Source of the DNA: an uncultured delta proteobacterium
Lineage (GTDB): Bacteria; Desulfobacterota; Desulfobacteria; Desulfobacterales; B30-G6
Assembly (NCBI GenBank): GCA_963823335.1
Contig: CAWGLD010000001.1
Span: forward strand, 352,001-416,000
Direction of reading: 5' to 3'
DNA: 64,000 bases
The stretch's first letter is position 1. Each line of letters starts with the position of its first letter. The notes under the pieces are model-generated. The model worked only from the letters and a program-made list of their open reading frames with translations. It ran no database searches and had not been told where the DNA came from. A program made the position numbers and the translations under genes. Of this stretch, positions 6,137 to 16,183 are shown one piece after another.

Positions 6137-6523
6137 ATGAAACTTCTGAAAAGACATTTACCCGCCTCACAATTGACAAAGAGCAAGGCGCTGACCCTGA
6201 CGCCTGTCAAAAATATGGACAGCTCCGAAGTAACCCTGGATTCCGGAGTTGTCGTTATCCGCTATCCCGTCACCATGCGACCCTGGATGGCGAAATGGAT
6301 CCAGCGGTTCAAGGGATCCTCTTCTCAGACTGGATCAAGGAAGCTGCAGTTAGACACCCTGGGAACACAGGTCTGGAAAATGATCGATGGGAAGCGAACG
6401 GTTCGGGATATCGTGGACGCTTTTGCCGTAGCCCATCAACTGGAAAGACGGGAAGCGGAAATGGCCGTCTCACAGTTTCTAAGGGATCTGGGCAAACGAG
6501 GGTTGATTGGAATGCAGGAATAA
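6137..6523 (+). CDS. PqqD family protein (RRE-like winged helix)
   Basis: LDTLGTQVWKMIDGKRTVRDIV...FLRDLGKRGLI is the PqqD signature. Confidence 0.85.
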   Translation: MKLLKRHLPASQLTKSKALTLTPVKNMDSSEVTLDSGVVVIRYPVTMRPWMAKWIQRFKGSSSQTGSRKLQLDTLGTQVWKMIDGKRTVRDIVDAFAVAHQLERREAEMAVSQFLRDLGKRGLIGMQE

Positions 6524-6626: not shown

Positions 6627-6965
6627 TTAGAAGGATTTCAGCGCCTCATCCATGCTCCCCACGATCGGCAGAAATGTATCGAAACCGGCGATTTCAAAGA
6701 CTTCCTTCACATAATCCTGCATGGAGCAAAGCATGATCTGGCCTTTCTCCCGGTGAAGCGCCTTGGTCGCCTTCAAGATGACGCGGAGTCCCGCGCTGGA
6801 AATATAATCGATATCTTTGAAATCGATCACCATGTTTTTCGATCCGTCTAAAATAGCACCAAAAACCCTTTCTTCGAAGCCCTGAGACGTGCTTGAATCG
6901 AGCCGACCGTTAAGCCTGAAAACACTGATGGTATCCTGTTTTTCTTCAATTATTTCCATGGACAT
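6627..6965 (-). CDS. STAS domain anti-sigma factor antagonist (RsbV/SpoIIAA-like)
   Basis: GRLD and IDYISSAGLR phospho-Ser motif. Confidence 0.92.
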   Translation of the reverse strand: MSMEIIEEKQDTISVFRLNGRLDSSTSQGFEERVFGAILDGSKNMVIDFKDIDYISSAGLRVILKATKALHREKGQIMLCSMQDYVKEVFEIAGFDTFLPIVGSMDEALKSF

Positions 6966-7057
6966 ACCTCCAAAACCGCATTAATACTTCTATCTTTGGC
7001 AGACGACTCACCCTGAACCCTGATCTGTCATTTATGGATGAACCCGGGCTGCCTGTC

Positions 7058-7486
7058 TCAATCCTCTCTTCTCAATTTTCGTCTGAGGATCAGAATGTTT
7101 TTATCCGCAACCCTTTGATACTGTACCTCGTCCATCATTTTGTTAATCAGGTGAATTCCCAGTCCGCCGATCTTGCATTTCTCGATATCACACTGGAAAT
7201 CAGGTGTCTTGGACTCCGACGGATTAAAAGGAACACCATCGTCTTCTATCCTCATCTGCAATTGATCCCCCTCGATTGTGATACTGATTTTGATGATATG
7301 TTCCTGGCTATCGTTGAAGCCATAAGAAATAATATTGGTGAACAGTTCATCAAGGGCAAGGTTCATCTCAAAGATGGACTTATCCGAAACGCCGATGGAT
7401 CGGCCTATCTCTTCACAATTCAGGCATAAGCGCTCCAACTCGGACAGATCGTTTTTCAACTCAAAGGAATAAAATTTCTTGACCAT
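7058..7486 (-). CDS. Anti-sigma factor / Ser kinase (RsbW-like HATPase_c_2)
   Basis: LALDELFTNIISYG, DDGVPFNP, GGLGIHLI. Confidence 0.92.
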   Translation of the reverse strand: MVKKFYSFELKNDLSELERLCLNCEEIGRSIGVSDKSIFEMNLALDELFTNIISYGFNDSQEHIIKISITIEGDQLQMRIEDDGVPFNPSESKTPDFQCDIEKCKIGGLGIHLINKMMDEVQYQRVADKNILILRRKLRRED

Positions 7487-7575
7487 CTCCCTTCACCTTC
7501 CCAACGTATCATCTTTGAAACAAAAATAACATATCAACCGGCAGACATCAACAGCCATGAAAGTCCAGATTATTA

Positions 7576-8100
7576 TTACAGCAAACTGACGCCTAAATGC
7601 TGTAAACATTCATCCCGATGATCCAAGCGACTCGACAAAAATCCTTTTTCCCACCCATCGACACCACCCACCAGTGCTTTGAAGAAACTGGGCATGAGAT
7701 CATGAAACTGGGACAAGGTCCGTGAAAACTTTTCCCTGGAAAGAATAAGACAGCTCGTTTCCGAAACCGCCTTCAGTGAAAACAGACGCTGCATGGAACC
7801 CATCAGAGACAGCCCGCCCAGAAATTCGCCTTCACCAACCTGACGAATCTCCCTGATGATGCCCCCCTCTTCCCTTTCCAGCACGGCATGGCCACGGATG
7901 ATATAAAAGGCCTGACCATCATCTTCTCCCTGGCGAAGCAGGTACTCTCCATTCTTGAAATTATCCCTGCTGCAAAGATAGGCAAACACTTTCAAAGTCT
8001 CCAGGGGGATACCCGAGAAGAGATAGGTCTGTCTCAATAGTTCGAGGTTCTGGTTCAGTTCGCAAACTGCGGTAGGTTTATTTGTTTCCAACGAGCTCAT
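7576..8100 (-). CDS. Cyclic nucleotide-binding domain protein
   Basis: LFSGIP, LLRQGE, GEFLGGLSL...R pattern; start set at ATG 8100 after AAGGAG. Confidence 0.85.
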   Translation of the reverse strand: MSSLETNKPTAVCELNQNLELLRQTYLFSGIPLETLKVFAYLCSRDNFKNGEYLLRQGEDDGQAFYIIRGHAVLEREEGGIIREIRQVGEGEFLGGLSLMGSMQRLFSLKAVSETSCLILSREKFSRTLSQFHDLMPSFFKALVGGVDGWEKGFLSSRLDHRDECLQHLGVSLL

Positions 8101-10591
8101 ATAGTGCTCCTTTCCGGTCCATGAGGTTGTTGTATGTGTCCATTTCAAGAATTTTTCCCGCCTTCAACACCGCCACTTTATCAAAGTTTTGAATCGTATC
8201 CAGACGATGCACCACGGAAATCAAGGTGCTCTTTTTCTTCCAGCGCCTCTCCAGAAGGTTGAGGATTCGTGTCTGAGACCGGTTGTCAAGGGCCGACGTT
8301 GCCTCGTCCATGATCAGGATCCTGGGACTTTTGAGAAATGCCCTTGCAATGGCCAGTTTCTGTCTCTGACCACCCGAAAGGTTGTCACCCTTGCTACCCA
8401 CATCATAATGCATTCCGATTTCGATTATGCGCTCCAGAAGATCCTCTTCGACTAAAAGCTGGATGATGCTCTGGTCGATGCGTTCCTGGGCAGCTGTATG
8501 GGTCGTGGTGGTTTTACCGAAAAAAATATTGCTCAGAATCGTTTGAGAAAAAATATATTCGGACATCTGGTAAAAGGAATAAACACCGGGATTATCCTCC
8601 GTAATCTTTTTGCGAAACAGTGATCGTCCTTCCAGAATGAGACTTTCCAGCATTTGGGGCATGGACACCATTTTGTGGGCACCCGGTGTAAACCGCAGCA
8701 CCACATCCAGGAGTTTTTGACGATCCATATGGGAAATATCGTGCAGGCGCTTCTTTTTCAAGACGCCCACCAGAGTAATGAGATCATCCAGCTCTGACGG
8801 TTCGATGGGACTTTGATTGAAGAAAATGGCATCCTTGGGCAGATTTCTCAAGATATCCACCGACTGTTTCACCAGTTCGATCCCCAGACTCAGTAACGGC
8901 CGGGTTAAATCCGCCTCATCCAGAAATTGAAGAAAATAGGGATTGCGACAGAGATTCGAGTCGGAAAACGAGGCTTGATTGGGTGTGCCGAAAGTCAGAT
9001 TTTCGGCGATGCTGGAATAATTGAGATATCGCTCCTGGTTGAAAAATTCCACATAATCGGCTAGCTCTTCACCAAATACCTCCTGGAAGTTCTTTCTCAC
9101 ACGAATGAGGGTGCCCACGAGATCCTTATTGCGGTCCTGTACCAGAATCGTATTTAAACCAAACCGCAAGACATCGACAAAAATGCCGGTCTGGTGAAGC
9201 ATTGCAATAATATCGTCCAGCGTCGGCAAGCTGCCGCCGATACCTTGCTCACTTTTTCCCAGCCTGGCCTCACATGAATAGAGAATGTTCTCCTCGATGG
9301 TCCCGCTGAAAATAAAAGGATCTTGCGCAACCAGACCGACGTTATTCACGATATCCCGCTTGGAGAGATCATCGATGTCCTGATCCCCGATCTGGATCTT
9401 CCCGCCGGTATGCTTGTAAAGCTGACCGATACATGCCGCAAGGGTACTTTTCCCGCTGCCCGAAAACCCCACCAGGGCCATGTGTTCACCGGGAGCCAGG
9501 GAAAGATCGATGTTGTCAATCAGCCGGATACCGCTTTCTGTTTCAAAAGACAGATTCCGGGCTTCGATGCTTCCATCCAGATCCAGCGGTTCCCGGTCTT
9601 CGGGTTCGAGAGTAAAATCAGGTTCCCCATCAAAATAGTCCATGGTCCGTCGATACGTCACAGCCCCATCCTGATATACCTGAAAAAACTCTATCAGCTC
9701 TTTCCACGGGTCAAAAAGCTTCTCCTGCGCGGAAACAAACACCACCAGCGAGCCCAGCTCCAATTGTCCCCTGATGGCCAGCCAGCCACCCAGAATAAAG
9801 ACCAGAAAGGGTCCCAGGCTGGTGAAAAAACCGTTCAGAGATTTGATGCCGAAGCGGTACAGACTCCAGACAATCCTGAGTTTCATCAGCTTATCCACCA
9901 GTTTTTCATATTTTCTGTTTTCAATGATATGGGCGCCATTGCCCTGAATTTCATGGATGCCGGACACCGACTCGGTGATGCGGGACGAAAAAATTCTGGA
10001 GGCGTCCACACGCTTCTTGTTGGCCTGATTCACGCGTCGTTGCATGATAGGTAGCAATAGAACGACAACGGGATAGATGCTGAGCGATACCAGCGCCAAA
10101 ACCCAGTTCAGCCAGAAAAGATAGCCGGCAAAGGCCAGCAGGGTCAGCAGATTGGTCACGGGCGCCGCGATGGCCAGACCTACGAAGTTTCCTGGTAGTG
10201 TCAACTCGGCAGAAAGGGAATTTACCACCAGGCCGGCCTGTGTCTTTCGGAAAAATCCCAATGGCAGGGTCAGGATATGAGCATAGAGTGCCTTTCGCAT
10301 GCGAGCAGTGGTACGCTCGGAAATCAAGGTCTGAATCAGACTGGTCAAAAACTTGAGACCGCTGGAACAGACAACAGCAAGTAAATAGATACCACAATAG
10401 CTCAGCAGCAGATCTATTTTCCTGAGGTTGATGGCTTCGTTGACGATGCGTTTCTGCATCTCGAGGGGCAACACGCGGGCAAATACCATCACGACAATAA
10501 TCAGCAGCAGCAGCAACTGCAACCTTAAATTGCCGGGAAATATCCATGAAAGCAGTGATCTCTTGACGACAGGAATGTCAGCCTTGGGCAT
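8078..10591 (-). CDS. ABC exporter, TMD fused to an NBD with a large insertion
   Basis: N-terminal TMD; Walker A GFSGSGKST and Q-loop VAQDP; then roughly 300 aa before LSGGQRQK, ILIMDE and the H-loop. Confidence 0.9.
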   Translation of the reverse strand: MPKADIPVVKRSLLSWIFPGNLRLQLLLLLIIVVMVFARVLPLEMQKRIVNEAINLRKIDLLLSYCGIYLLAVVCSSGLKFLTSLIQTLISERTTARMRKALYAHILTLPLGFFRKTQAGLVVNSLSAELTLPGNFVGLAIAAPVTNLLTLLAFAGYLFWLNWVLALVSLSIYPVVVLLLPIMQRRVNQANKKRVDASRIFSSRITESVSGIHEIQGNGAHIIENRKYEKLVDKLMKLRIVWSLYRFGIKSLNGFFTSLGPFLVFILGGWLAIRGQLELGSLVVFVSAQEKLFDPWKELIEFFQVYQDGAVTYRRTMDYFDGEPDFTLEPEDREPLDLDGSIEARNLSFETESGIRLIDNIDLSLAPGEHMALVGFSGSGKSTLAACIGQLYKHTGGKIQIGDQDIDDLSKRDIVNNVGLVAQDPFIFSGTIEENILYSCEARLGKSEQGIGGSLPTLDDIIAMLHQTGIFVDVLRFGLNTILVQDRNKDLVGTLIRVRKNFQEVFGEELADYVEFFNQERYLNYSSIAENLTFGTPNQASFSDSNLCRNPYFLQFLDEADLTRPLLSLGIELVKQSVDILRNLPKDAIFFNQSPIEPSELDDLITLVGVLKKKRLHDISHMDRQKLLDVVLRFTPGAHKMVSMPQMLESLILEGRSLFRKKITEDNPGVYSFYQMSEYIFSQTILSNIFFGKTTTTHTAAQERIDQSIIQLLVEEDLLERIIEIGMHYDVGSKGDNLSGGQRQKLAIARAFLKSPRILIMDEATSALDNRSQTRILNLLERRWKKKSTLISVVHRLDTIQNFDKVAVLKAGKILEMDTYNNLMDRKGALYELVGNK

Positions 10592-10609
10592 AACACGCTC
10601 CTTGGTGTG

Positions 10610-10755
10610 TAGAAGCTATCTCAAAAATGTCTTTTAGTCCAAATCCTGCGTTGGGACCTCGTTTCAAGTCTTCAACATACTTGCGTATGCCTGCGGGTTG
10701 AAACTTGGATCCGCCTTGACTTTGAACCAAAATCCTATTTTGGATATGGCTTCTA
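10610..10755. mobile_element. MITE family 1, short copy
   Basis: Ends TAGAAGCTATCTCAAAA ... TTTTGGATATGGCTTCTA; internal sequence alignable with copies at 22338 and 26897. Confidence 0.75.
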
Positions 10756-10833
10756 ATCTTATGTCTATTTTGTGCGTGATGTGAAATGGGTCAATAAATA
10801 AGGATTCGAGGGATCGATAGACACAACGATGCT

Positions 10834-10879
10834 CTAAGCTGTAAGCGCTAAGCTGCTTATAGCTTAAGGCTTACAGCTC
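10834..10879. repeat. Heptamer-based palindromic repeat
   Basis: ctaagctgtaaagcgctaagc tgcttatagcttaaggcttacagc. Confidence 0.55.
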
Positions 10880-10928
10880 AGTTTCCTGAAATCCTCAAAG
10901 ACCACGGTCTTTCCTTGATTGACGATAG

Positions 10929-11005
10929 TGAACCGCAACAGCGAGCGCATTCCTCGTAGGTTCTGCCGTTCGGCAGTGCTTCGCAAGCTGCAAGGTTCTT
11001 CAATT
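10929..11005 (-). mobile_element. MITE family 2, internally deleted copy
   Basis: Reverse complement of both ends of 22781-22903 (TGAACCGCAACAGCGAGCGCATTCC... / ...AGGTTCTTCAAT). Confidence 0.7.
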
Positions 11006-11012
11006 AACGTAC

Positions 11013-12545
11013 TCATAGCAGCTTGATCACCACCAGCGTAACATCATCTTCCTGGGGAGCGTCTCCCTTGAATGTTTGCAGCTCATGGATGATAGCGTTC
11101 TGGATGGTCTCTGCGGAGGCAGTGCTGTGTTTTCGGACGATCTCATGGGATCCCGCCTGCCCGAACATGGTGTCTTCCCGATTCCGGCTTTCATGAATGC
11201 CGTCTGTTCCAACAATCAGAACACTGCCGGGGACCCAACCTTGCCGTTCGTACATCTGGAACTGGTAGTCCTCCACAATACCCAGCGCCATGCCTTTCCC
11301 GGACAGTTCTTCGAACTTGCCATTGCTGGGGTCAAACAGGATGGCAGGCTCATGTCCGGCGCGAACCCAGCGTAAGGTCTGTGATTGCGCATCGATTTCC
11401 AGAAAAAACATGCTTATAAAGCGGCTTGTAACACCACTGTCACGTGTTACGTATTTATTGACTCCTTGCATCAGGTGTGCGGGGTCCTGATATTCTCTCA
11501 CGCTGAGATGCAGAAAGGAACGGGCGCCGGTCATGTGCATGGCAGCGCCAATACCGTGCCCTGAGGCATCCGCCACCACGATGCCGAGTTTCTGATCAGG
11601 CAAATCCAGAAAATCGTAATAATCACCTCCGATTTCATCACAGTAAAGACTGGTCCCTGAAATATCCAGGCGTGGATGATTGGGCGGTCTTTTCGGCAAT
11701 AAATTCTGTTGAATCTCCTCTGCCATCTTGAGATCATTGATGAGCCGCATCCGGTGCCGCAACCCTTCGATCATGTTGTTCGTGTGACCTGCAATAATAC
11801 CAAATTCATCATTGGTGGCAATAGGAACCTTGCGCGTAAGATCGCCCTGACTGACCCGCTCCAGGACCCTGGTTTCATTTGAAAACAAAAGCTTCAGATT
11901 TTTCGAATAGGAAACAATCAGGTTAATGACCAGGGCAAGCATGACCACCATGATAAAAAAGACTTCATAAGCAACAGACATTTGTGCTGTCACAAGGGCG
12001 TTGGTTGACGAGTCCAGACCGGCCAGCCATACGATGTCACGGGTAAATACCAAAACGAGAATAATCGAAAAAAACAGCACCGACGTCAGGGCTGCCAGAA
12101 AAAATTTGCGTGTCATGGAATAAAGATGTTTTGGCGGCTCCTGGTTCCTGTTCAATTCGAGGGTGTTGAAAATAATTTCCCGTTCTCTTTCCAGCGCGGT
12201 GTCCAGAGCCAGAAAAAAGCCGGCCATCAGGCACCCGATCAACAGGGAAAGTGTGCTTGTAATGGGAAAGCCCAACATCAGTACGTTGTAAATACTGGCC
12301 AGAATCCCTGCCATCAGACTTAACAAAATATCCAGGGTAAACTGGCGCTTGGGTTGCAACGTATCTGCTCTGGACAGAACAAACCGCCTCACCAGCGGTC
12401 CTCTTGAAATCAAAGCTGCTGCATATGCAACAAAAAGTATTACCCCCAGCTCCACGGGGGGCATAGCTGCCATGAACGGTCAGACCTGACCACCATATAT
12501 GGTCAGGGTAATGATGGCAAAAATATAATGGGCAATAATGCGCAT
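11013..12545 (-). CDS. Membrane-bound HAMP + SpoIIE (PP2C) phosphatase, RsbU-like; candidate selenoprotein (in-frame TGA at 12482-12480)
   Basis: GGDYYD, ADASGHG, TDG and DDVT PP2C motifs and a HAMP domain. The frame continues upstream through TGA to ATG 12545 with a GGGGA RBS, giving MRIIAHYIFAIITLTIYGGQV*PFM. The ORF-track portion is 11013-12473. Confidence 0.85.
12441..12463 (-). promoter_or_regulatory. Putative bacterial SECIS hairpin
   Basis: mRNA UGCCCCC-CGUGGAGCU-GGGGGUA: 7-bp stem with a G-containing loop starting about 23 nt after the UGA. Confidence 0.5.
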
Positions 12546-12673
12546 GAGACAGTCCCCCAATAAGTTCGTTGGAAGAATTTATGAAACGCGGCAATGCCGC
12601 TCTGAAGAGAAAAGGGTTACCCGGATCACGGAGGTACCCAGCTGTTCTTTAGCGAAATAAGAGATCTACTTCT

Positions 12674-12719
12674 AATTTAAATCTGATCCGCTGTGAAAAC
12701 AGCGCATCAGATTTAAATT
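12674..12719. terminator. Long hairpin downstream of the permease gene
   Basis: AATTTAAATCTGAT-C-CGCTGT GAAA ACAGCG-C-ATCAGATTTAAATT. Confidence 0.55.
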
Positions 12720-12750: not shown

Positions 12751-15357
12751 TTATGGCAATTTGGACGGCTTGTTCTTTGTATTCTCTGGAGGGCTCAGCT
12801 CCTGTAACAGTTCATCCGGCAGCTTTGCTCCGTTGTCTGCAGCCGCCTGTGCCGCCTGCCGGACCTTGGCCTCCGCTTTGGCTGCCTTTCTGGCGGCCAA
12901 GGCGGCTGCATCCTCGGCCTCGAATACGGCACCACGCACCGTTTGAATCTTGGAAGATGTTTCTTTAAGTTTTTCCACCTCTGAAAGCCGGGCCAGTTCC
13001 TCATCCAGAGCCAGTGAGGCCATCTCAGCCTCCTTCTCCGCTTTTTGCGCTCTTTTTTCTGCCTCCGCCAACTGATCCAAGACCGAGGCTATTTCAGCGG
13101 CTTTGCCTTCTTCCGGTTCAGCCTCGAGATCGATGTCCTCAGCTGCAAGAACCATGGCCACGGAAGGAAGCTGGTTGATAATATTCTCCACAGGTTCACC
13201 AAACGGGCCCAGGGAACGATCTCCCTTGATTTGAAACGGCATCAGGACCAGCGATGCATCGCTGGACTGTTGCACGACCACCGCCGCGTCGATGGTTTCA
13301 AGTTCCACCGGTTCCGCACAAATACGGACATCGTCAAGAAACGTCTTCAGGCTCCCCACCGCTTGTTCCTTGTCCGCCTTGATTGCCGAACTCAACACCC
13401 GGATCCTGGCATCGTCCCAGTTTTTGGAGCGGGTGATCAGATGGGCCAGCAGTAACATCAGGCGACCGGTTGCATCATCCCACCACCATACATCGATCCG
13501 ACGTTCCGTTTCCGGGACCGACAACATCTCCTGCCATCGCTCCCCTTTGGCATCCAGCACAATGATATTGCGCCCCTGTTTAAAAATCCGCTTTAATCGT
13601 CTGTCGTAAAGGGTTTTCCTGATATGCGGCTTGCGGCTGGTTTCATTTGTCAGCCACCCGAACAGGATGGTATTGGTGTGCAGGGGCCCGATGCCTGCGG
13701 CCTGGACCAGCATGTCAACCCCGCGCTCGAAGTTCGATGCCGACACCACCAGCGGAAACGCACCCAGTTCATAAGCAGCGATTTCTTTTTTCAGATCTTT
13801 TTCAGTCTCTTTCTGCAGCTTGATTGCTCTTGCTCCACGTGCCTCAATGAGCTGGACAACCGTAATCAGGCCTGTGTTTCCCGTAATCCAGGAAGCCAGT
13901 GTCAGGAGAGGTGCTCTTCTTTCGGGGCTGTCGGAAAACAGAAGCAGCTGGGGTCTCCAATCTCTGGGGTGCTCAGGCTCTGCGGCCGCCGCCAGCAGGT
14001 GATCCCTCACCAGTTGAAGATGATAAGACCGTTTTCCATCCGCCCATCGCGCCGGGCCGGACGTGCGCTGCAGGTACTGGTAAATGGAAAAAAGAACCGT
14101 CGCAGAAATCAATCCCGCCGTGATATCGATGGCCAACATCACGCCCAGGCACGACAAGCCACCCAAAAGACTCAGGCGGCCGTCGTACCATTTGAACCGA
14201 GGTCGAAAAGAAGGGCTGGCCGCACGGCTTTCAAAATAGGTTGCGTAGTTAAGAAGCCCATAAGAGATCAGAAAAAACATGGAAACAATCGGTGCAATGA
14301 CATTCAGGTTGCCAAGTCCAATGGTCATGATGGCAATACCACCGGCCAGCAGCACGCCTCTTCTGGGATTGTTGCTAACACCTTCTCCTTTAGCAAAGGG
14401 CAGCAGGAAGGGAAAGATTCGATCCGAAGCCAGTGACTGTAATATTCTGGGCGCTCCCAAAAAGGATGCCATGGCAGAAGAAAGGGTTGCCGCAATCACA
14501 CCGGCCGTAATCAGGAAACCGAATGTCGCCACACGGTTCATGGCCGTGTAGTCACCCGTCAGCAACGACTGTGGCAGGGCAGCTGAAAAGATGACCGCCG
14601 ACACAAAATAGATTATGATGGAAACAAATACCGCCAGGAAGGTTCCCAATGGAAGACTCTTTCCAGCATCTTTCAGATCGCCTGACATGCTGATCCCCTG
14701 GGTAAACCCGGTCACAGCTGGGAAAAAAATGGCAAAAAGCAGCCAGAAATCCGGTCCGTCCAAAGGTTGGTGCCAATTGCGCACCAAATTCGCGGTTTCC
14801 CATTTTACAATACCTCCCCAAAAAAAGGATACGAGCGCCACCATCAGAATTCCCATGACCGCATACTGAAAGCGTGTTGCCCAGTCGGCACCCAGCCAGG
14901 CAAAGACAAACAGGAACAGCACCGCACAGGCCGCCACCACCTGCGGCCAATGGGCTCCAAAGATCGACAAAGGAATTACATGGGCCAAGACCTCCCCGAA
15001 GCCGATACAGTAAAAACCGATGGAAACAGACTGAGCCAGAAAAAGAACGATACCCAGGGCACCACCAAATTCCGGTCCAAGGGTCCTCGAAATCAGGTAA
15101 TAGTCTCCGCCGCCCTTGACCTTGATGTTGGTGGCAATAGCCGAAAGAGATATACTGGTCAAAACAGATATCCCGTTGGCCAGAACCAGGATCAACAGCG
15201 CCCGCCCCAATCCGGCGTTACCCACCACATAACCGAGTCGCAGGAAAAGAATGATGCCCAGAATCGTGAGAATGCTGGGCGTGAAAACACCGGAAAAAGT
15301 GCCCAGGGTTCCCGGCCGCTTCAACGAGGTGCCTGTTTGAGAATCATTTTTCATCAT
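12751..15357 (-). CDS. Amino acid permease / SLC12-like cation-chloride cotransporter with an Ala/Glu/Lys-rich tail
   Basis: GVFTPSILTILGIILFLR, GGGDYYLISRTLG, FFPAVTG, FRPRFK and WRPQLL motifs. Start moved to the ATG at 15357 (or 15354) to avoid overlapping the divergent gene. Confidence 0.88.
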   Translation of the reverse strand: MMKNDSQTGTSLKRPGTLGTFSGVFTPSILTILGIILFLRLGYVVGNAGLGRALLILVLANGISVLTSISLSAIATNIKVKGGGDYYLISRTLGPEFGGALGIVLFLAQSVSIGFYCIGFGEVLAHVIPLSIFGAHWPQVVAACAVLFLFVFAWLGADWATRFQYAVMGILMVALVSFFWGGIVKWETANLVRNWHQPLDGPDFWLLFAIFFPAVTGFTQGISMSGDLKDAGKSLPLGTFLAVFVSIIIYFVSAVIFSAALPQSLLTGDYTAMNRVATFGFLITAGVIAATLSSAMASFLGAPRILQSLASDRIFPFLLPFAKGEGVSNNPRRGVLLAGGIAIMTIGLGNLNVIAPIVSMFFLISYGLLNYATYFESRAASPSFRPRFKWYDGRLSLLGGLSCLGVMLAIDITAGLISATVLFSIYQYLQRTSGPARWADGKRSYHLQLVRDHLLAAAAEPEHPRDWRPQLLLFSDSPERRAPLLTLASWITGNTGLITVVQLIEARGARAIKLQKETEKDLKKEIAAYELGAFPLVVSASNFERGVDMLVQAAGIGPLHTNTILFGWLTNETSRKPHIRKTLYDRRLKRIFKQGRNIIVLDAKGERWQEMLSVPETERRIDVWWWDDATGRLMLLLAHLITRSKNWDDARIRVLSSAIKADKEQAVGSLKTFLDDVRICAEPVELETIDAAVVVQQSSDASLVLMPFQIKGDRSLGPFGEPVENIINQLPSVAMVLAAEDIDLEAEPEEGKAAEIASVLDQLAEAEKRAQKAEKEAEMASLALDEELARLSEVEKLKETSSKIQTVRGAVFEAEDAAALAARKAAKAEAKVRQAAQAAADNGAKLPDELLQELSPPENTKNKPSKLP

Positions 15358-15397
15358 CTGTTTGAAATAGTTCATTTCTCGTGCTAAATCAAGAAAT

Positions 15398-16183
15398 ATG
15401 CCCCAACCAGACGAATACAACACCAAGGAAAACATTCTTCGCAGGTCCTATGCCATTCGATCCTACGAGGTCAATGCCGGTGGTCGATTGTCTATACCCT
15501 CCATTTTCAATCTTCTGCAGGATGCCGCCAGCAGCCATGCACTGAAGCTTGGTGTTTCCGTGCCGCAATTGCTTGCCAACAATTACACCTGGGTGCTTTC
15601 GAGAATTTATCTCAAAATGAATCACTATCCTGGATGGGGGAATACGATCCAGGTTCACACATGGCCCTCTGGAATCGAACGGGTATTTGCCTTAAGAGAT
15701 TTTGACATTCACCAGGATGGCAGTAGCATAGGGTCTTGTGTCAGTGCCTGGATCATTATCGATTCAGGCAACCGGCGTCCGCTACGGCCCACGTCCTTTG
15801 CCCGACAGTTAAATCCCGTGGACAGGCAACATGTACTGGATCACCCGCTTGGCAAACTGCCCGTATTGAAGACCCCCCAGATTGAAAAATGTTTCAGCGT
15901 CAGATATCAAGATCTCGACATTAATCAGCATGTCAACAATGTCAGTTATATTGAATGGCTGCTGGAATGCCTTCCCGGTATGGTTGAAAACGGTCTCTGC
16001 CTGTCGGAACTGGAAGTCAATTTCCTGGGAGAAGCGCTCCAAGGAGATATGGTCCGGGCCAGGTGTTGCCCTCAGGATGAGAAAGGTCTGCGGATTGCCC
16101 ACGACGTGCTGCGTGAGGCAGATGGCCGGGAACTGATCCGGGCCAGGACAAGCTGGAAAAATACCAGGATGACAGACAATTAG
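15398..16183 (+). CDS. Acyl-ACP thioesterase
   Basis: IRSYE, LQDAA..HA, RYQDLDINQHVNNVSY motifs. Confidence 0.9.
   Translation: MPQPDEYNTKENILRRSYAIRSYEVNAGGRLSIPSIFNLLQDAASSHALKLGVSVPQLLANNYTWVLSRIYLKMNHYPGWGNTIQVHTWPSGIERVFALRDFDIHQDGSSIGSCVSAWIIIDSGNRRPLRPTSFARQLNPVDRQHVLDHPLGKLPVLKTPQIEKCFSVRYQDLDINQHVNNVSYIEWLLECLPGMVENGLCLSELEVNFLGEALQGDMVRARCCPQDEKGLRIAHDVLREADGRELIRARTSWKNTRMTDN

Follow-up and report, generated by a model that had tools for sequence, protein, structure and literature searches.

An in-frame TGA in the membrane sensor domain of a PP2C-type phosphatase gene is very probably read as selenocysteine (Sec) in an uncultured delta proteobacterium (GTDB lineage Bacteria; Desulfobacterota; Desulfobacteria; Desulfobacterales; B30-G6). 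The gene lies at positions 11013-12545, on the minus strand, of a stretch of 64,000 nucleotides, referred to here as the window, which corresponds to positions 352,001 to 416,000 of contig CAWGLD010000001.1 in NCBI GenBank assembly GCA_963823335.1. According to its sequence and its Pfam matches it encodes a MASE10-HAMP-PP2C phosphatase in 510 codons, with one internal TGA at codon 22 and a terminal TGA stop at 11015-11013. We place the probability that UGA22 is decoded as selenocysteine, within a predicted inner-membrane protein of 510 residues, at roughly 0.87. This reading is strongly supported by comparison between genomes, namely by the conservation of the UGA itself, by a conserved hairpin behind it that resembles a selenocysteine insertion sequence (SECIS), by a complete Sec system in the genome and by the presence of Cys at the same position in homologues.

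Read directly on the minus strand, the 5' end of the gene consists of GGGGGA (12558-12553), within which a Shine-Dalgarno-like GGGGA (12553-12557) stands 7 nt 5' of the start codon, followed by the ATG at 12545-12543, 20 sense codons, the TGA at 12482-12480, CCG TTC and a second ATG at 12473. It is from this second ATG that the mechanical list of open reading frames (ORFs) starts the conventional gene (11013-12473, 486 aa). Translation through the TGA yields MRIIAHYIFAIITLTIYGGQV-U-PFMAAMPPVELG..., with 510 residues in total and a peptide that starts PFMAAMPP after the U, and codons 2-21 (12483-12542) correspond to the first predicted transmembrane helix, which ends in the invariant motif Y17-G-G-x-V21. 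The original prediction, made from the letters of this DNA, had described a frame open upstream through a single TGA to an ATG preceded by GGGGA, and had spelled out the peptide thereby added; direct reading and translation agree with it on the frame, and the peptide MRIIAHYIFAIITLTIYGGQV-U-PF is identical.

The TGA is a constant feature of this gene in related genomes. When 61 such genomes were searched with the read-through protein, 15 full-length matches were obtained from several families of the order, at 100-48% identity, and all of them (15/15) carry exactly one in-frame TGA, at the same column and within the motif Y-G-G-Q/K-V/I-[TGA]-P-F/L. Scans with the Pfam MASE10 family, which are independent of the residue at the site, were carried out on 401 genomes of the phylum and on 401 genomes of the order. 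The former returned 12 matches in 11 genomes, eight of them with one TGA, and the latter 93 matches in 90 genomes, among which 81 have one TGA and 12 have none, three of these twelve being partial matches that fall short of the site. Fifty-four of the 81 TGA-bearing matches were cut out for comparison, the other 27 lying outside it, and the TGA falls in the Sec22 column in every case (54/54). In total, 114 distinct MASE10 loci were cut out, with TGA at the column in 60, TGC in 32, TGT in 22 and neither TAA nor TAG in any (0/114). The resulting 60:54 ratio of TGA to Cys is not a frequency, because 49 of the Cys loci were drawn by a pattern scan built on Cys codons (alignment A2), which returned Cys forms only; the unbiased figures are those of the phylum and order scans. 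Two loci, L058 (a GC-rich wrong-frame read) and L161 (no motif), were left out of these counts, while the motif search missed five MASE10 loci of the phylum scan and the paralogue locus L063, five being found by phmmer or with a looser motif.

A search that employed no profile gave a similar picture. Residues 1-200, compared with 1.84 billion representative proteins, matched 285 of them, and among the best 150 of these 285 there are 101 that cover the column, with Cys in 99, Asp in one and Ser in one. Another 20 of the best 150 start exactly at residue 25 with M-x-x-L/M-P-P-x-x-L-G and are, judged by their sequence, truncated annotations of Sec forms. The sole non-Cys residues among the 101 site-covering representatives occur in P0065 (YGSQVDKMM, with Asp, where the following motif is also lost) and P0179 (IGVKVSPF, with Ser), which may be frameshifted calls or true non-thiol variants. 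Homologues therefore carry Cys or TGA at this column, as the selenocysteine proposal demanded, and not Trp, Arg or Gly.

The Cys forms consist of one continuous ORF with the same motif, Y-G-G-x-V-C-P, and occur with all three output types, HD-GYP, cyclase and PP2C; the MASE10-PP2C architecture itself is shared by the Cys loci L081, L091, L096, L097 and L106. By their record titles, the hosts of Cys forms belong to Thermodesulfobacteriota, Nitrospinota, Neomarinimicrobiota, SAR324, Gammaproteobacteria, Arcobacter and Leptospiraceae. Within our sample all HD-GYP forms have Cys, and Sec is confined to the PP2C and cyclase forms. The site is one of only six MASE10 columns that are invariant in alignments A1 and A2 (Y17, C/U22, P23, G109, D170 and F197).

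Several features indicate that the codons in front of the TGA are translated as part of the same protein. The Pfam MASE10 profile (PF20970) matches residues 6-197 (11955-12530) with 119.6 bits against a cut-off of 27 and is covered from position 1 to position 186 of 186, a full-profile match that is obtained only when the TGA is read through, as the profile requires the 21 upstream codons. Because the profile is fully covered, these codons represent helix 1 of an already known sensor domain with six helices and not a chance extension. In addition, the alignment and its codon tables reveal coding conservation, and thus purifying selection, on both sides of the TGA. At the Gly codons -4 and -3 before it (residues 18 and 19), the third bases among 18 PP2C-type orthologues are T6/A1/G4/C7 and T6/C3/A5/G4, respectively, so that the residue is kept while its third base varies, which argues that the upstream frame is translated and under selection at the protein level. 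In 56 of the 60 TGA loci an in-frame ATG is found 15-25 codons 5' of the TGA and no stop interrupts the interval; in a subset of 26 loci the distance to this upstream ATG is 21-22 codons in 25, among them every one of the 22 TGA loci of the subset, and 37-38 codons in the Cys locus L052.

These observations bear directly on the most conventional explanation, that the TGA is a true stop which closes a hydrophobic leader of 21 residues, with a five-helix phosphatase then being produced from ATG 12473 by reinitiation or translational coupling and with the hairpin serving such coupling or mRNA stability. Gene callers make this choice throughout: 58 close homologues in a collection of 5.8 billion proteins, mostly 486 aa long and named RsbU or PP2C phosphatase, are all annotated without the first 24 residues and have at most 88% of the first 200 residues covered. 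It is also true that an ATG stands three codons past the TGA in the window, and passage of a short N-terminal tail across the membrane is conceivable in principle. Against this, codon +3 is ATG in just 24 of the 60 TGA loci, the remainder having CTG (14), CTC (5), CTT (4), TTA (3), TTG (3), CAT (3), CTA (2), ATC (1) or ATA (1), so that there is no conserved restart codon. Moreover, the stop-bearing loci have TGA in 60 of 60 cases and never TAA or TAG, with both parts always in the same frame, the Cys forms fuse the two parts into a single ORF with the same motif, the MASE10 profile spans the junction and the genome uses Sec in other genes. Termination at this codon is, in consequence, improbable, even if it is the rival that survives best. 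Since all 58 close homologues lack the first 24 residues, helix 1 and its key residue are missing from public protein sets, a systematic annotation error that matters all the more as 81 of the 93 MASE10 genes found in the order of the window are of the TGA kind.

Downstream of the TGA is a hairpin (12441-12463, minus strand), drawn from folding and from comparison across genomes, in which the 5' arm UGCCCCC (12463-12457) and the 3' arm GGGGGUA (12447-12441) form a stem of 7 bp around the loop CGUGGAGCU (12456-12448), for which the minimum free energy (MFE) is -12.3 kcal/mol. The loop has a G at position 2, followed by U, and is reduced to GGA if an inner ministem of 2 bp forms; the distance from the UGA is 23 nt to the 9-nt loop and 26 nt to the inner GGA loop. 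The stem-loop that had been pointed out originally, with its seven pairs and its spacing of 23 nt, is accordingly present. As specified in the legend to Fig. 2 of a May 2026 review of prokaryotic selenoproteins (PMC13188914), the bacterial SECIS (bSECIS) model calls for a stem of 4-16 bp capped by an apical loop of 3-9 nt whose first two positions include a G, at a distance of 16-37 nt from the UGA, with an MFE no higher than -7.5 kcal/mol. The hairpin of the window fits these constraints, as given in that legend, in its stem, its loop of 9 nt or GGA, its distance and its energy.

Conservation of this hairpin exceeds what the protein would require. Its codons are virtually frozen in the 18 PP2C-type orthologues (Pro CCC in 17/18, Pro CCC in 17/18, Val GTG in 17/18 and Gly GGG in 18/18), and this immobility of synonymous sites implies selection on the RNA. 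Across 38 distinct sequences the seven drawn pairs are formed in 95.1% of cells, compared with 48-71% when the 3' partner is slid by one to three columns. At pair 31-49, 30 sequences have C-G and seven have U-A, a compensatory exchange of both bases by which Ser replaces Pro and Thr replaces Ala/Val, and another pair is G-C in 28, G-U in eight and A-U in one.

A second group of related-genome proteins, with MASE10-HAMP-cyclase architecture, carries a TGA at the same column within the motif Y-G-A-Q-V-[TGA]-P-F, followed by a different hairpin, CGGCCU-loop-AGGCCG, which starts about 13 nt past the UGA. Among 17 distinct sequences of this type 96.1% of cells are paired, as opposed to 19-58% when slid, and the closing pair is C-G in ten, G-C in four, A-U in one and G-U in one. 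These adenylate/guanylate cyclases (L059-L061, L063, L143-L153 and L155-L157; 18 rows in the tree described below) constitute, on comparative evidence, a second candidate selenoprotein group that is likewise unlisted; the genome of the window itself has a single MASE10 match, of the PP2C form only. Considering both hairpin types and allowing at most one missing pair, 58 of the 60 TGA loci possess such a structure against five of the 54 Cys loci, and positions +10 to +52 have a mean MFE of -14.0 kcal/mol in TGA loci versus -8.4 kcal/mol in Cys loci. The joint recurrence of the TGA column, the upstream ATG and the hairpin in dozens of genomes is, as judged from these sequence comparisons, beyond chance.

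A quick maximum-likelihood tree was built from 113 MASE10-HAMP regions with the site masked and with L158 omitted as too short, and it needs two changes between Sec and Cys. The Sec-PP2C clade (41 rows, support 82) is sister to a Cys-PP2C clade of seven rows, the joint clade having a support of 95, while the Sec-cyclase clade (18 rows, support 99) is sister to one Cys cyclase. Gain and loss of Sec are not distinguished by this tree, because it is unrooted and came with long-branch warnings. Two clades with different hairpins indicate at least two occasions on which the site acquired or retained Sec, and this in turn speaks for selenium conferring a genuine selective benefit on the MASE10 sensor.

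The genome is equipped to decode such a codon. A tRNA-Sec was detected by ARAGORN and by Rfam (75.4 bits), and selA (610 bits), selB (373 bits) and selD (372 bits) all score above their curated cut-offs, so that the Sec machinery, whose presence had been named as a check on the proposal, is indeed in place. Other genes of the genome contain an in-frame TGA as well, including selD itself (C5:144246-145172), an FdhA-like gene (C1:1677449-1678192), four of five FlpD/MvhD-like genes (C1:1610688, C1:952159, C1:1683402 and C5:443626) and a HesB-like gene identified by a weak match (C1:189853); the hairpins of these genes start 13-20 nt downstream of the UGA, and their loops are short and rich in G.

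It could still be argued that UGA22 is read through without selenium, by a near-cognate tRNA that brings in Cys or Trp or through stimulation by the hairpin, and that the full-length product is no selenoprotein. The comparison between genomes demonstrates continued translation and not which residue goes in, and Cys is the homologous residue at the site, both of which agree with such a mechanism. The genome, however, has a complete Sec system along with several classical selenoprotein genes, the hairpin fits the bSECIS constraints on position, loop and G content as far as the legend cited above states them, and one substitution, TGA to TGC or TGT, would suffice for Cys, yet TGA has been kept across two clades. 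Readthrough of this kind thus appears a shade less probable even than a true stop, and incorporation of selenocysteine is the reading with which we proceed.

Regarding the protein itself, three domains were recognized. The MASE10 sensor domain described above is followed by a HAMP linker at residues 226-263 (11757-11870; PF00672), which with 23.3 bits is slightly below its cut-off of 25 but is above it in aligned homologues (for example, 27.9 bits in L067 and 31.9 bits in L105), and by a SpoIIE-type PP2C phosphatase domain at residues 316-509 (11019-11600; PF07228), with 149.6 bits against a cut-off of 25. The whole-profile score together with six predicted helices that lead into HAMP assigns the sensor part to MASE10. 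The phosphatase part contains GGD308, D326ASGHG, TD448G and ED500D501, which we take to be the metal-binding Asp motifs of PP2C; among the columns tabulated, G306, T447, E499 and D500 show no variation across the 18 Sec-PP2C orthologues in alignment A1, the separate tabulation having covered columns other than Asp 308, 326, 448 and 501. In the strict sense, RsbU has an N-terminal RsbU_N domain that binds RsbT. Pfam matched only MASE10, HAMP and SpoIIE in the present protein, with no RsbU_N domain, and the earlier designation as an RsbU-like phosphatase therefore holds with respect to its output only. Likewise, the solved structures that match do so in the PP2C part alone (6k4e, 3es2/3eq2, Rv1364c 3ke6, and SpoIIE 3t91 and 5ucg), and none was found for residues 1-270.

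An AlphaFold model, computed from 25 aligned sequences with Cys in place of Sec, reached a mean predicted local distance difference test score (pLDDT) of 86.3 and contains helices at residues 2-21, 30-56, 61-91, 95-131, 144-175 and 181-232, the last of which continues into the HAMP region. Residue 22 is the first residue of the loop 22-29. According to the positive-inside rule, loops rich in basic residues remain in the cytoplasm, where HAMP is necessarily located. As Arg and Lys abound in loops 47-60 and 132-143, loop 22-29 would be periplasmic, and Sec22 would accordingly sit on the periplasmic side, where helix 1 emerges from the membrane. The model is consistent with the position at the end of the first transmembrane helix that had been envisaged for this residue.

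From these elements a working mechanism may be outlined. SelB and tRNA-Sec would decode codon 22 under the direction of the hairpin 23 nt downstream and place Sec within the most conserved MASE10 motif, Y-G-G-x-V-[U/C]-P, where most MASE10 proteins have Cys. A role of Sec22 as a redox or metal sensing residue, as had been suggested for it, is plausible: its selenol could be the reactive centre that undergoes oxidation, forms an adduct or binds a soft metal or a sulfur species. A selenol has a lower pKa than a thiol and is the stronger nucleophile (PMC13188914, section 8). The lack of a second conserved Cys nearby renders a CxxU-type redox couple within the chain unlikely; candidate chemistries include adduct formation, the binding of a metal or sulfur species, and a bond that joins both chains of a dimer. 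A change in the state of Sec22 might then shift helix 1 against the bundle and reach the cytoplasmic PP2C domain by way of helix 6 and the HAMP linker. In addition, the use of UGA at codon 22 would tie production of the sensor to the supply of selenium. That Sec22 takes part directly in sensing is a tentative proposal, to which we would give at best even odds.

The genes next to the phosphatase point to partner switching as its output. Following it on the minus strand are genes for an ABC exporter-like protein of 837 aa (8078-10591; Pfam ABC_membrane and ABC_tran), a protein with a cyclic-nucleotide-binding domain (7576-8148; PF00027), an RsbW-like serine kinase or anti-sigma type protein of the HATPase_c_2 family (7058-7486; PF13581, 95.5 bits), which the RsbW models match below their cut-offs, and a STAS anti-sigma-factor antagonist (6627-6965; Pfam STAS 78.9 bits; TIGR00377 82.5 bits over a cut-off of 53.45), the likely substrate of the phosphatase. 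In seven of ten orthologous loci, at identities down to 48%, these five genes (6627-12545) follow in the same order. With an RsbW-type kinase and a STAS antagonist beside the phosphatase, the cluster has, by sequence, the gene set of a partner switch, and from this conserved cluster and the PP2C motifs dephosphorylation of the STAS protein is the most likely output. The PP2C domain would thus act on the product of 6627-6965, encoded 4 kb downstream, after its phosphorylation by the kinase of 7058-7486. No sigma factor was found among the ORFs scanned in the 1-22 kb part of the window, a scan that took in a selection of its ORFs, and the target of the switch may for this reason be the ABC or cyclic-nucleotide-binding pair.

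A number of observations weigh against the above interpretation, either in its decoding or in its signalling part. The periplasmic placement of Sec22 leans on a predicted model with Cys in the place of Sec and on a general rule of membrane topology. No second conserved Cys and no CxxU-type motif was detected near Sec22 in the alignments (C105 is Cys in 13 of 18 Sec-PP2C orthologues and in four of seven other aligned sequences), so that Sec22 is unlike the site of a classical thiol-oxidoreductase. Three of the ten orthologous loci are without the kinase and STAS genes within the flank fetched. As for the hairpin, it is no better than dinucleotide shuffles in energy (z = -0.08 over 51 nt and -1.64 over 23 nt, with a further z of -1.08); folding energy is uninformative here because runs of C and G pair in the shuffles too, and given these weak z-scores the significance of the hairpin comes from comparison between genomes and not from its energy. 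The seven U-A sequences at pair 31-49 probably represent a single event, as all of them fall in one clade of the tree, two of the 60 TGA loci (L131 and L146) fit neither hairpin as drawn, and the cyclase-type loop has 11 nt as paired, above the published 3-9 nt unless an inner pair forms. Furthermore, the hairpin and column counts stem from related genomes and not from independent samples.

To these points belongs the result of a terminator scan, which flags a stem at 12460-12443 followed by TAATACTTTT and so raises the idea that the hairpin is an attenuator or intrinsic terminator, the TGA and its upstream ORF then being a leader-peptide control device. The T-run after the stem is not kept in orthologues, where it reads CCCAGATCGCC in L022 and CGACGCTGACA in L018, the scan as a whole produced four such sites where 1.9 are expected by chance, and the upstream peptide belongs to the MASE10 profile. 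Contigs from RNA libraries (X10, 12418-12568; X11, 12313-12700) also traverse the hairpin, a finding to be read with the caveat that DNA carry-over is possible and that such contigs are no proof of transcription. Attenuation is thus very improbable as an account of this locus. Finally, while a single in-frame stop is the usual sign of a sequencing or assembly error or of a pseudogene, nothing else speaks for either, and the probability that remains for them is negligible given the same codon in 60 distinct loci of many genomes, purifying selection on both sides and the agreement of contigs from four runs, a rival that may be regarded as already refuted. The latter contigs, obtained in four different studies, bridge 12480-12482 with no alternative letter listed and comprise, besides X10 and X11, those of the DNA runs X1 (12233-12700, no difference) and X3 (12237-12498 and 12476-12700). 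The TGA that had been marked for a check at read level at 12480 is in this way carried unchanged by contigs of two DNA and two RNA-library runs, and together with the 60 loci they establish that it is not peculiar to one assembly. Selenocysteine at codon 22 consequently remains the reading that we favour.

Some further features of the surroundings deserve mention in their own right. In the 837-aa ABC protein the ABC_tran match is split into about 359-446 and about 677-834, which implies that roughly 230 residues are inserted within the nucleotide-binding domain, and the last 71 bases of its gene overlap the start of the cyclic-nucleotide-binding ORF (8078-8148). Directly upstream of the phosphatase gene is that of an SLC12-type cation-chloride cotransporter-like protein (12751-15435, minus strand) of 894 aa with a C-terminal tail rich in Ala, Glu and Lys, and an SLC12-type gene is also located upstream in the four same-genus loci whose flank reached that far. 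A PqqD-like ORF of 128 aa (6137-6523, plus strand) stands beside the STAS gene in six of the seven loci that keep the cluster, and in the seventh (G043) it is found upstream of the phosphatase gene. At the other end, an ORF of 50 aa (10864-11016) that overlaps the stop codon of the phosphatase gene was dropped as a gene, its frame being closed by several stops and having no Pfam match. About 135 nt past this stop codon there is a 10-bp inverted repeat, AGCTGTAAGC ... GCTTACAGCT, with a 22-nt loop (10837-10878, minus strand), which has no T-run behind it and is absent from the list of the terminator scan.

To our knowledge, nearly every selenoprotein described is a redox enzyme, a metal handler or a transporter. 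Within the most conserved MASE10 motif, the Sec/Cys pair singles out one residue as the presumable chemically active centre of the sensor domain, and through this single residue the question of which signal MASE10 perceives becomes accessible to concrete experiment. On a bolder view, which we consider possible although the odds are somewhat against it, Sec-MASE10 proteins would represent the first selenocysteine-dependent transmembrane signal receptors, with the selenol itself, on the periplasmic side at the tip of helix 1, as the sensing centre. Should this be true, a selenol would sense oxidants, electrophiles, sulfur species or soft metals and thereby drive a partner-switching phosphatase or a cAMP/cGMP cyclase, and in every MASE10 sensor, the Cys forms of Vibrio and other Gammaproteobacteria among them, the Sec/Cys pair would identify the reactive residue.

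The family is outside the selenoprotein catalogue in the places consulted. Table 1 of the above review, which lists 119 prokaryotic selenoprotein families and subfamilies, has no MASE10, PP2C/SpoIIE, cyclase or HAMP entry and no signal-transduction receptor (PMC13188914), and neither the PP2C form nor the cyclase forms have a specific model in NCBIfam, where the best match of the PP2C form is SiaA, far under its cut-off. The main texts of PMC13188914, PMC12013277, PMC13326102, PMC1976440, PMC1794560, PMC9312934 and PMC5029168, taken without their supplements, contain nothing on a comparable Sec sensor. In the literature covered, a peroxiredoxin-PP2C fusion (PMC2398784) was the only item found in relation to Sec-containing MASE10, PP2C or HAMP sensors, and the supplementary listings of deep-Sep and BSepDB may hold others. 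The preprint that describes MASE10 (10.1101/2021.11.05.467447) reports six transmembrane helices followed by HAMP, a conserved Cys in a periplasmic loop and a ligand for none of these proteins, and the words 'selenocysteine' and 'TGA' are absent from its main text.

Comparison with known systems places the protein at the meeting point of several lines. In the histidine kinases ArcB and RegB a reactive Cys near the membrane reports the redox or quinone state to a cytoplasmic signalling domain; the resemblance is a functional analogy only, as folds and outputs differ from those of the window protein. With partner-switching phosphatases of the RsbU, SpoIIE and SiaA type it shares the SpoIIE-type PP2C domain and the presence, encoded nearby, of an RsbW-like kinase and a STAS antagonist, whereas its input is a MASE10 membrane sensor with a predicted Sec and its cluster adds ABC exporter-like and cyclic-nucleotide-binding genes. 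Cys-containing MASE10 proteins, such as Vibrio cholerae VC1295 (MASE10-HAMP-HD-GYP), have the same six-helix domain and HAMP and, as far as the preprint cited above describes them, fall into HD-GYP, cyclase and PP2C output classes, but in the window the Cys codon is replaced by UGA with a SECIS-like hairpin. The peroxiredoxin-PP2C fusion of the GOS (Global Ocean Sampling) metagenome is likewise a selenoprotein polypeptide with a PP2C-type domain; its Sec belongs to a soluble peroxiredoxin with a thiol-peroxidase motif and its PP2C to a distant subgroup (PMC2398784), whereas the Sec of the window protein would lie in a transmembrane sensor domain without a redox-enzyme fold. Membrane selenoproteins with a Sec/Cys site and a downstream bSECIS appear in Table 1 of the review (PMC13188914) as YeeE/YedE, the SaoP permease, a Cu/Zn efflux transporter, an E1-E2 ATPase and an FCYXU-type TonB receptor, all of them transporters or uptake receptors and none, unlike the protein considered here, a signal transducer with HAMP and an enzymatic output. 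In conclusion, set against these sources as far as they were covered, the present finding joins two known kinds, the MASE10 sensor and the bacterial Sec/Cys pair with its bSECIS, in a protein that belongs to no catalogued selenoprotein family.

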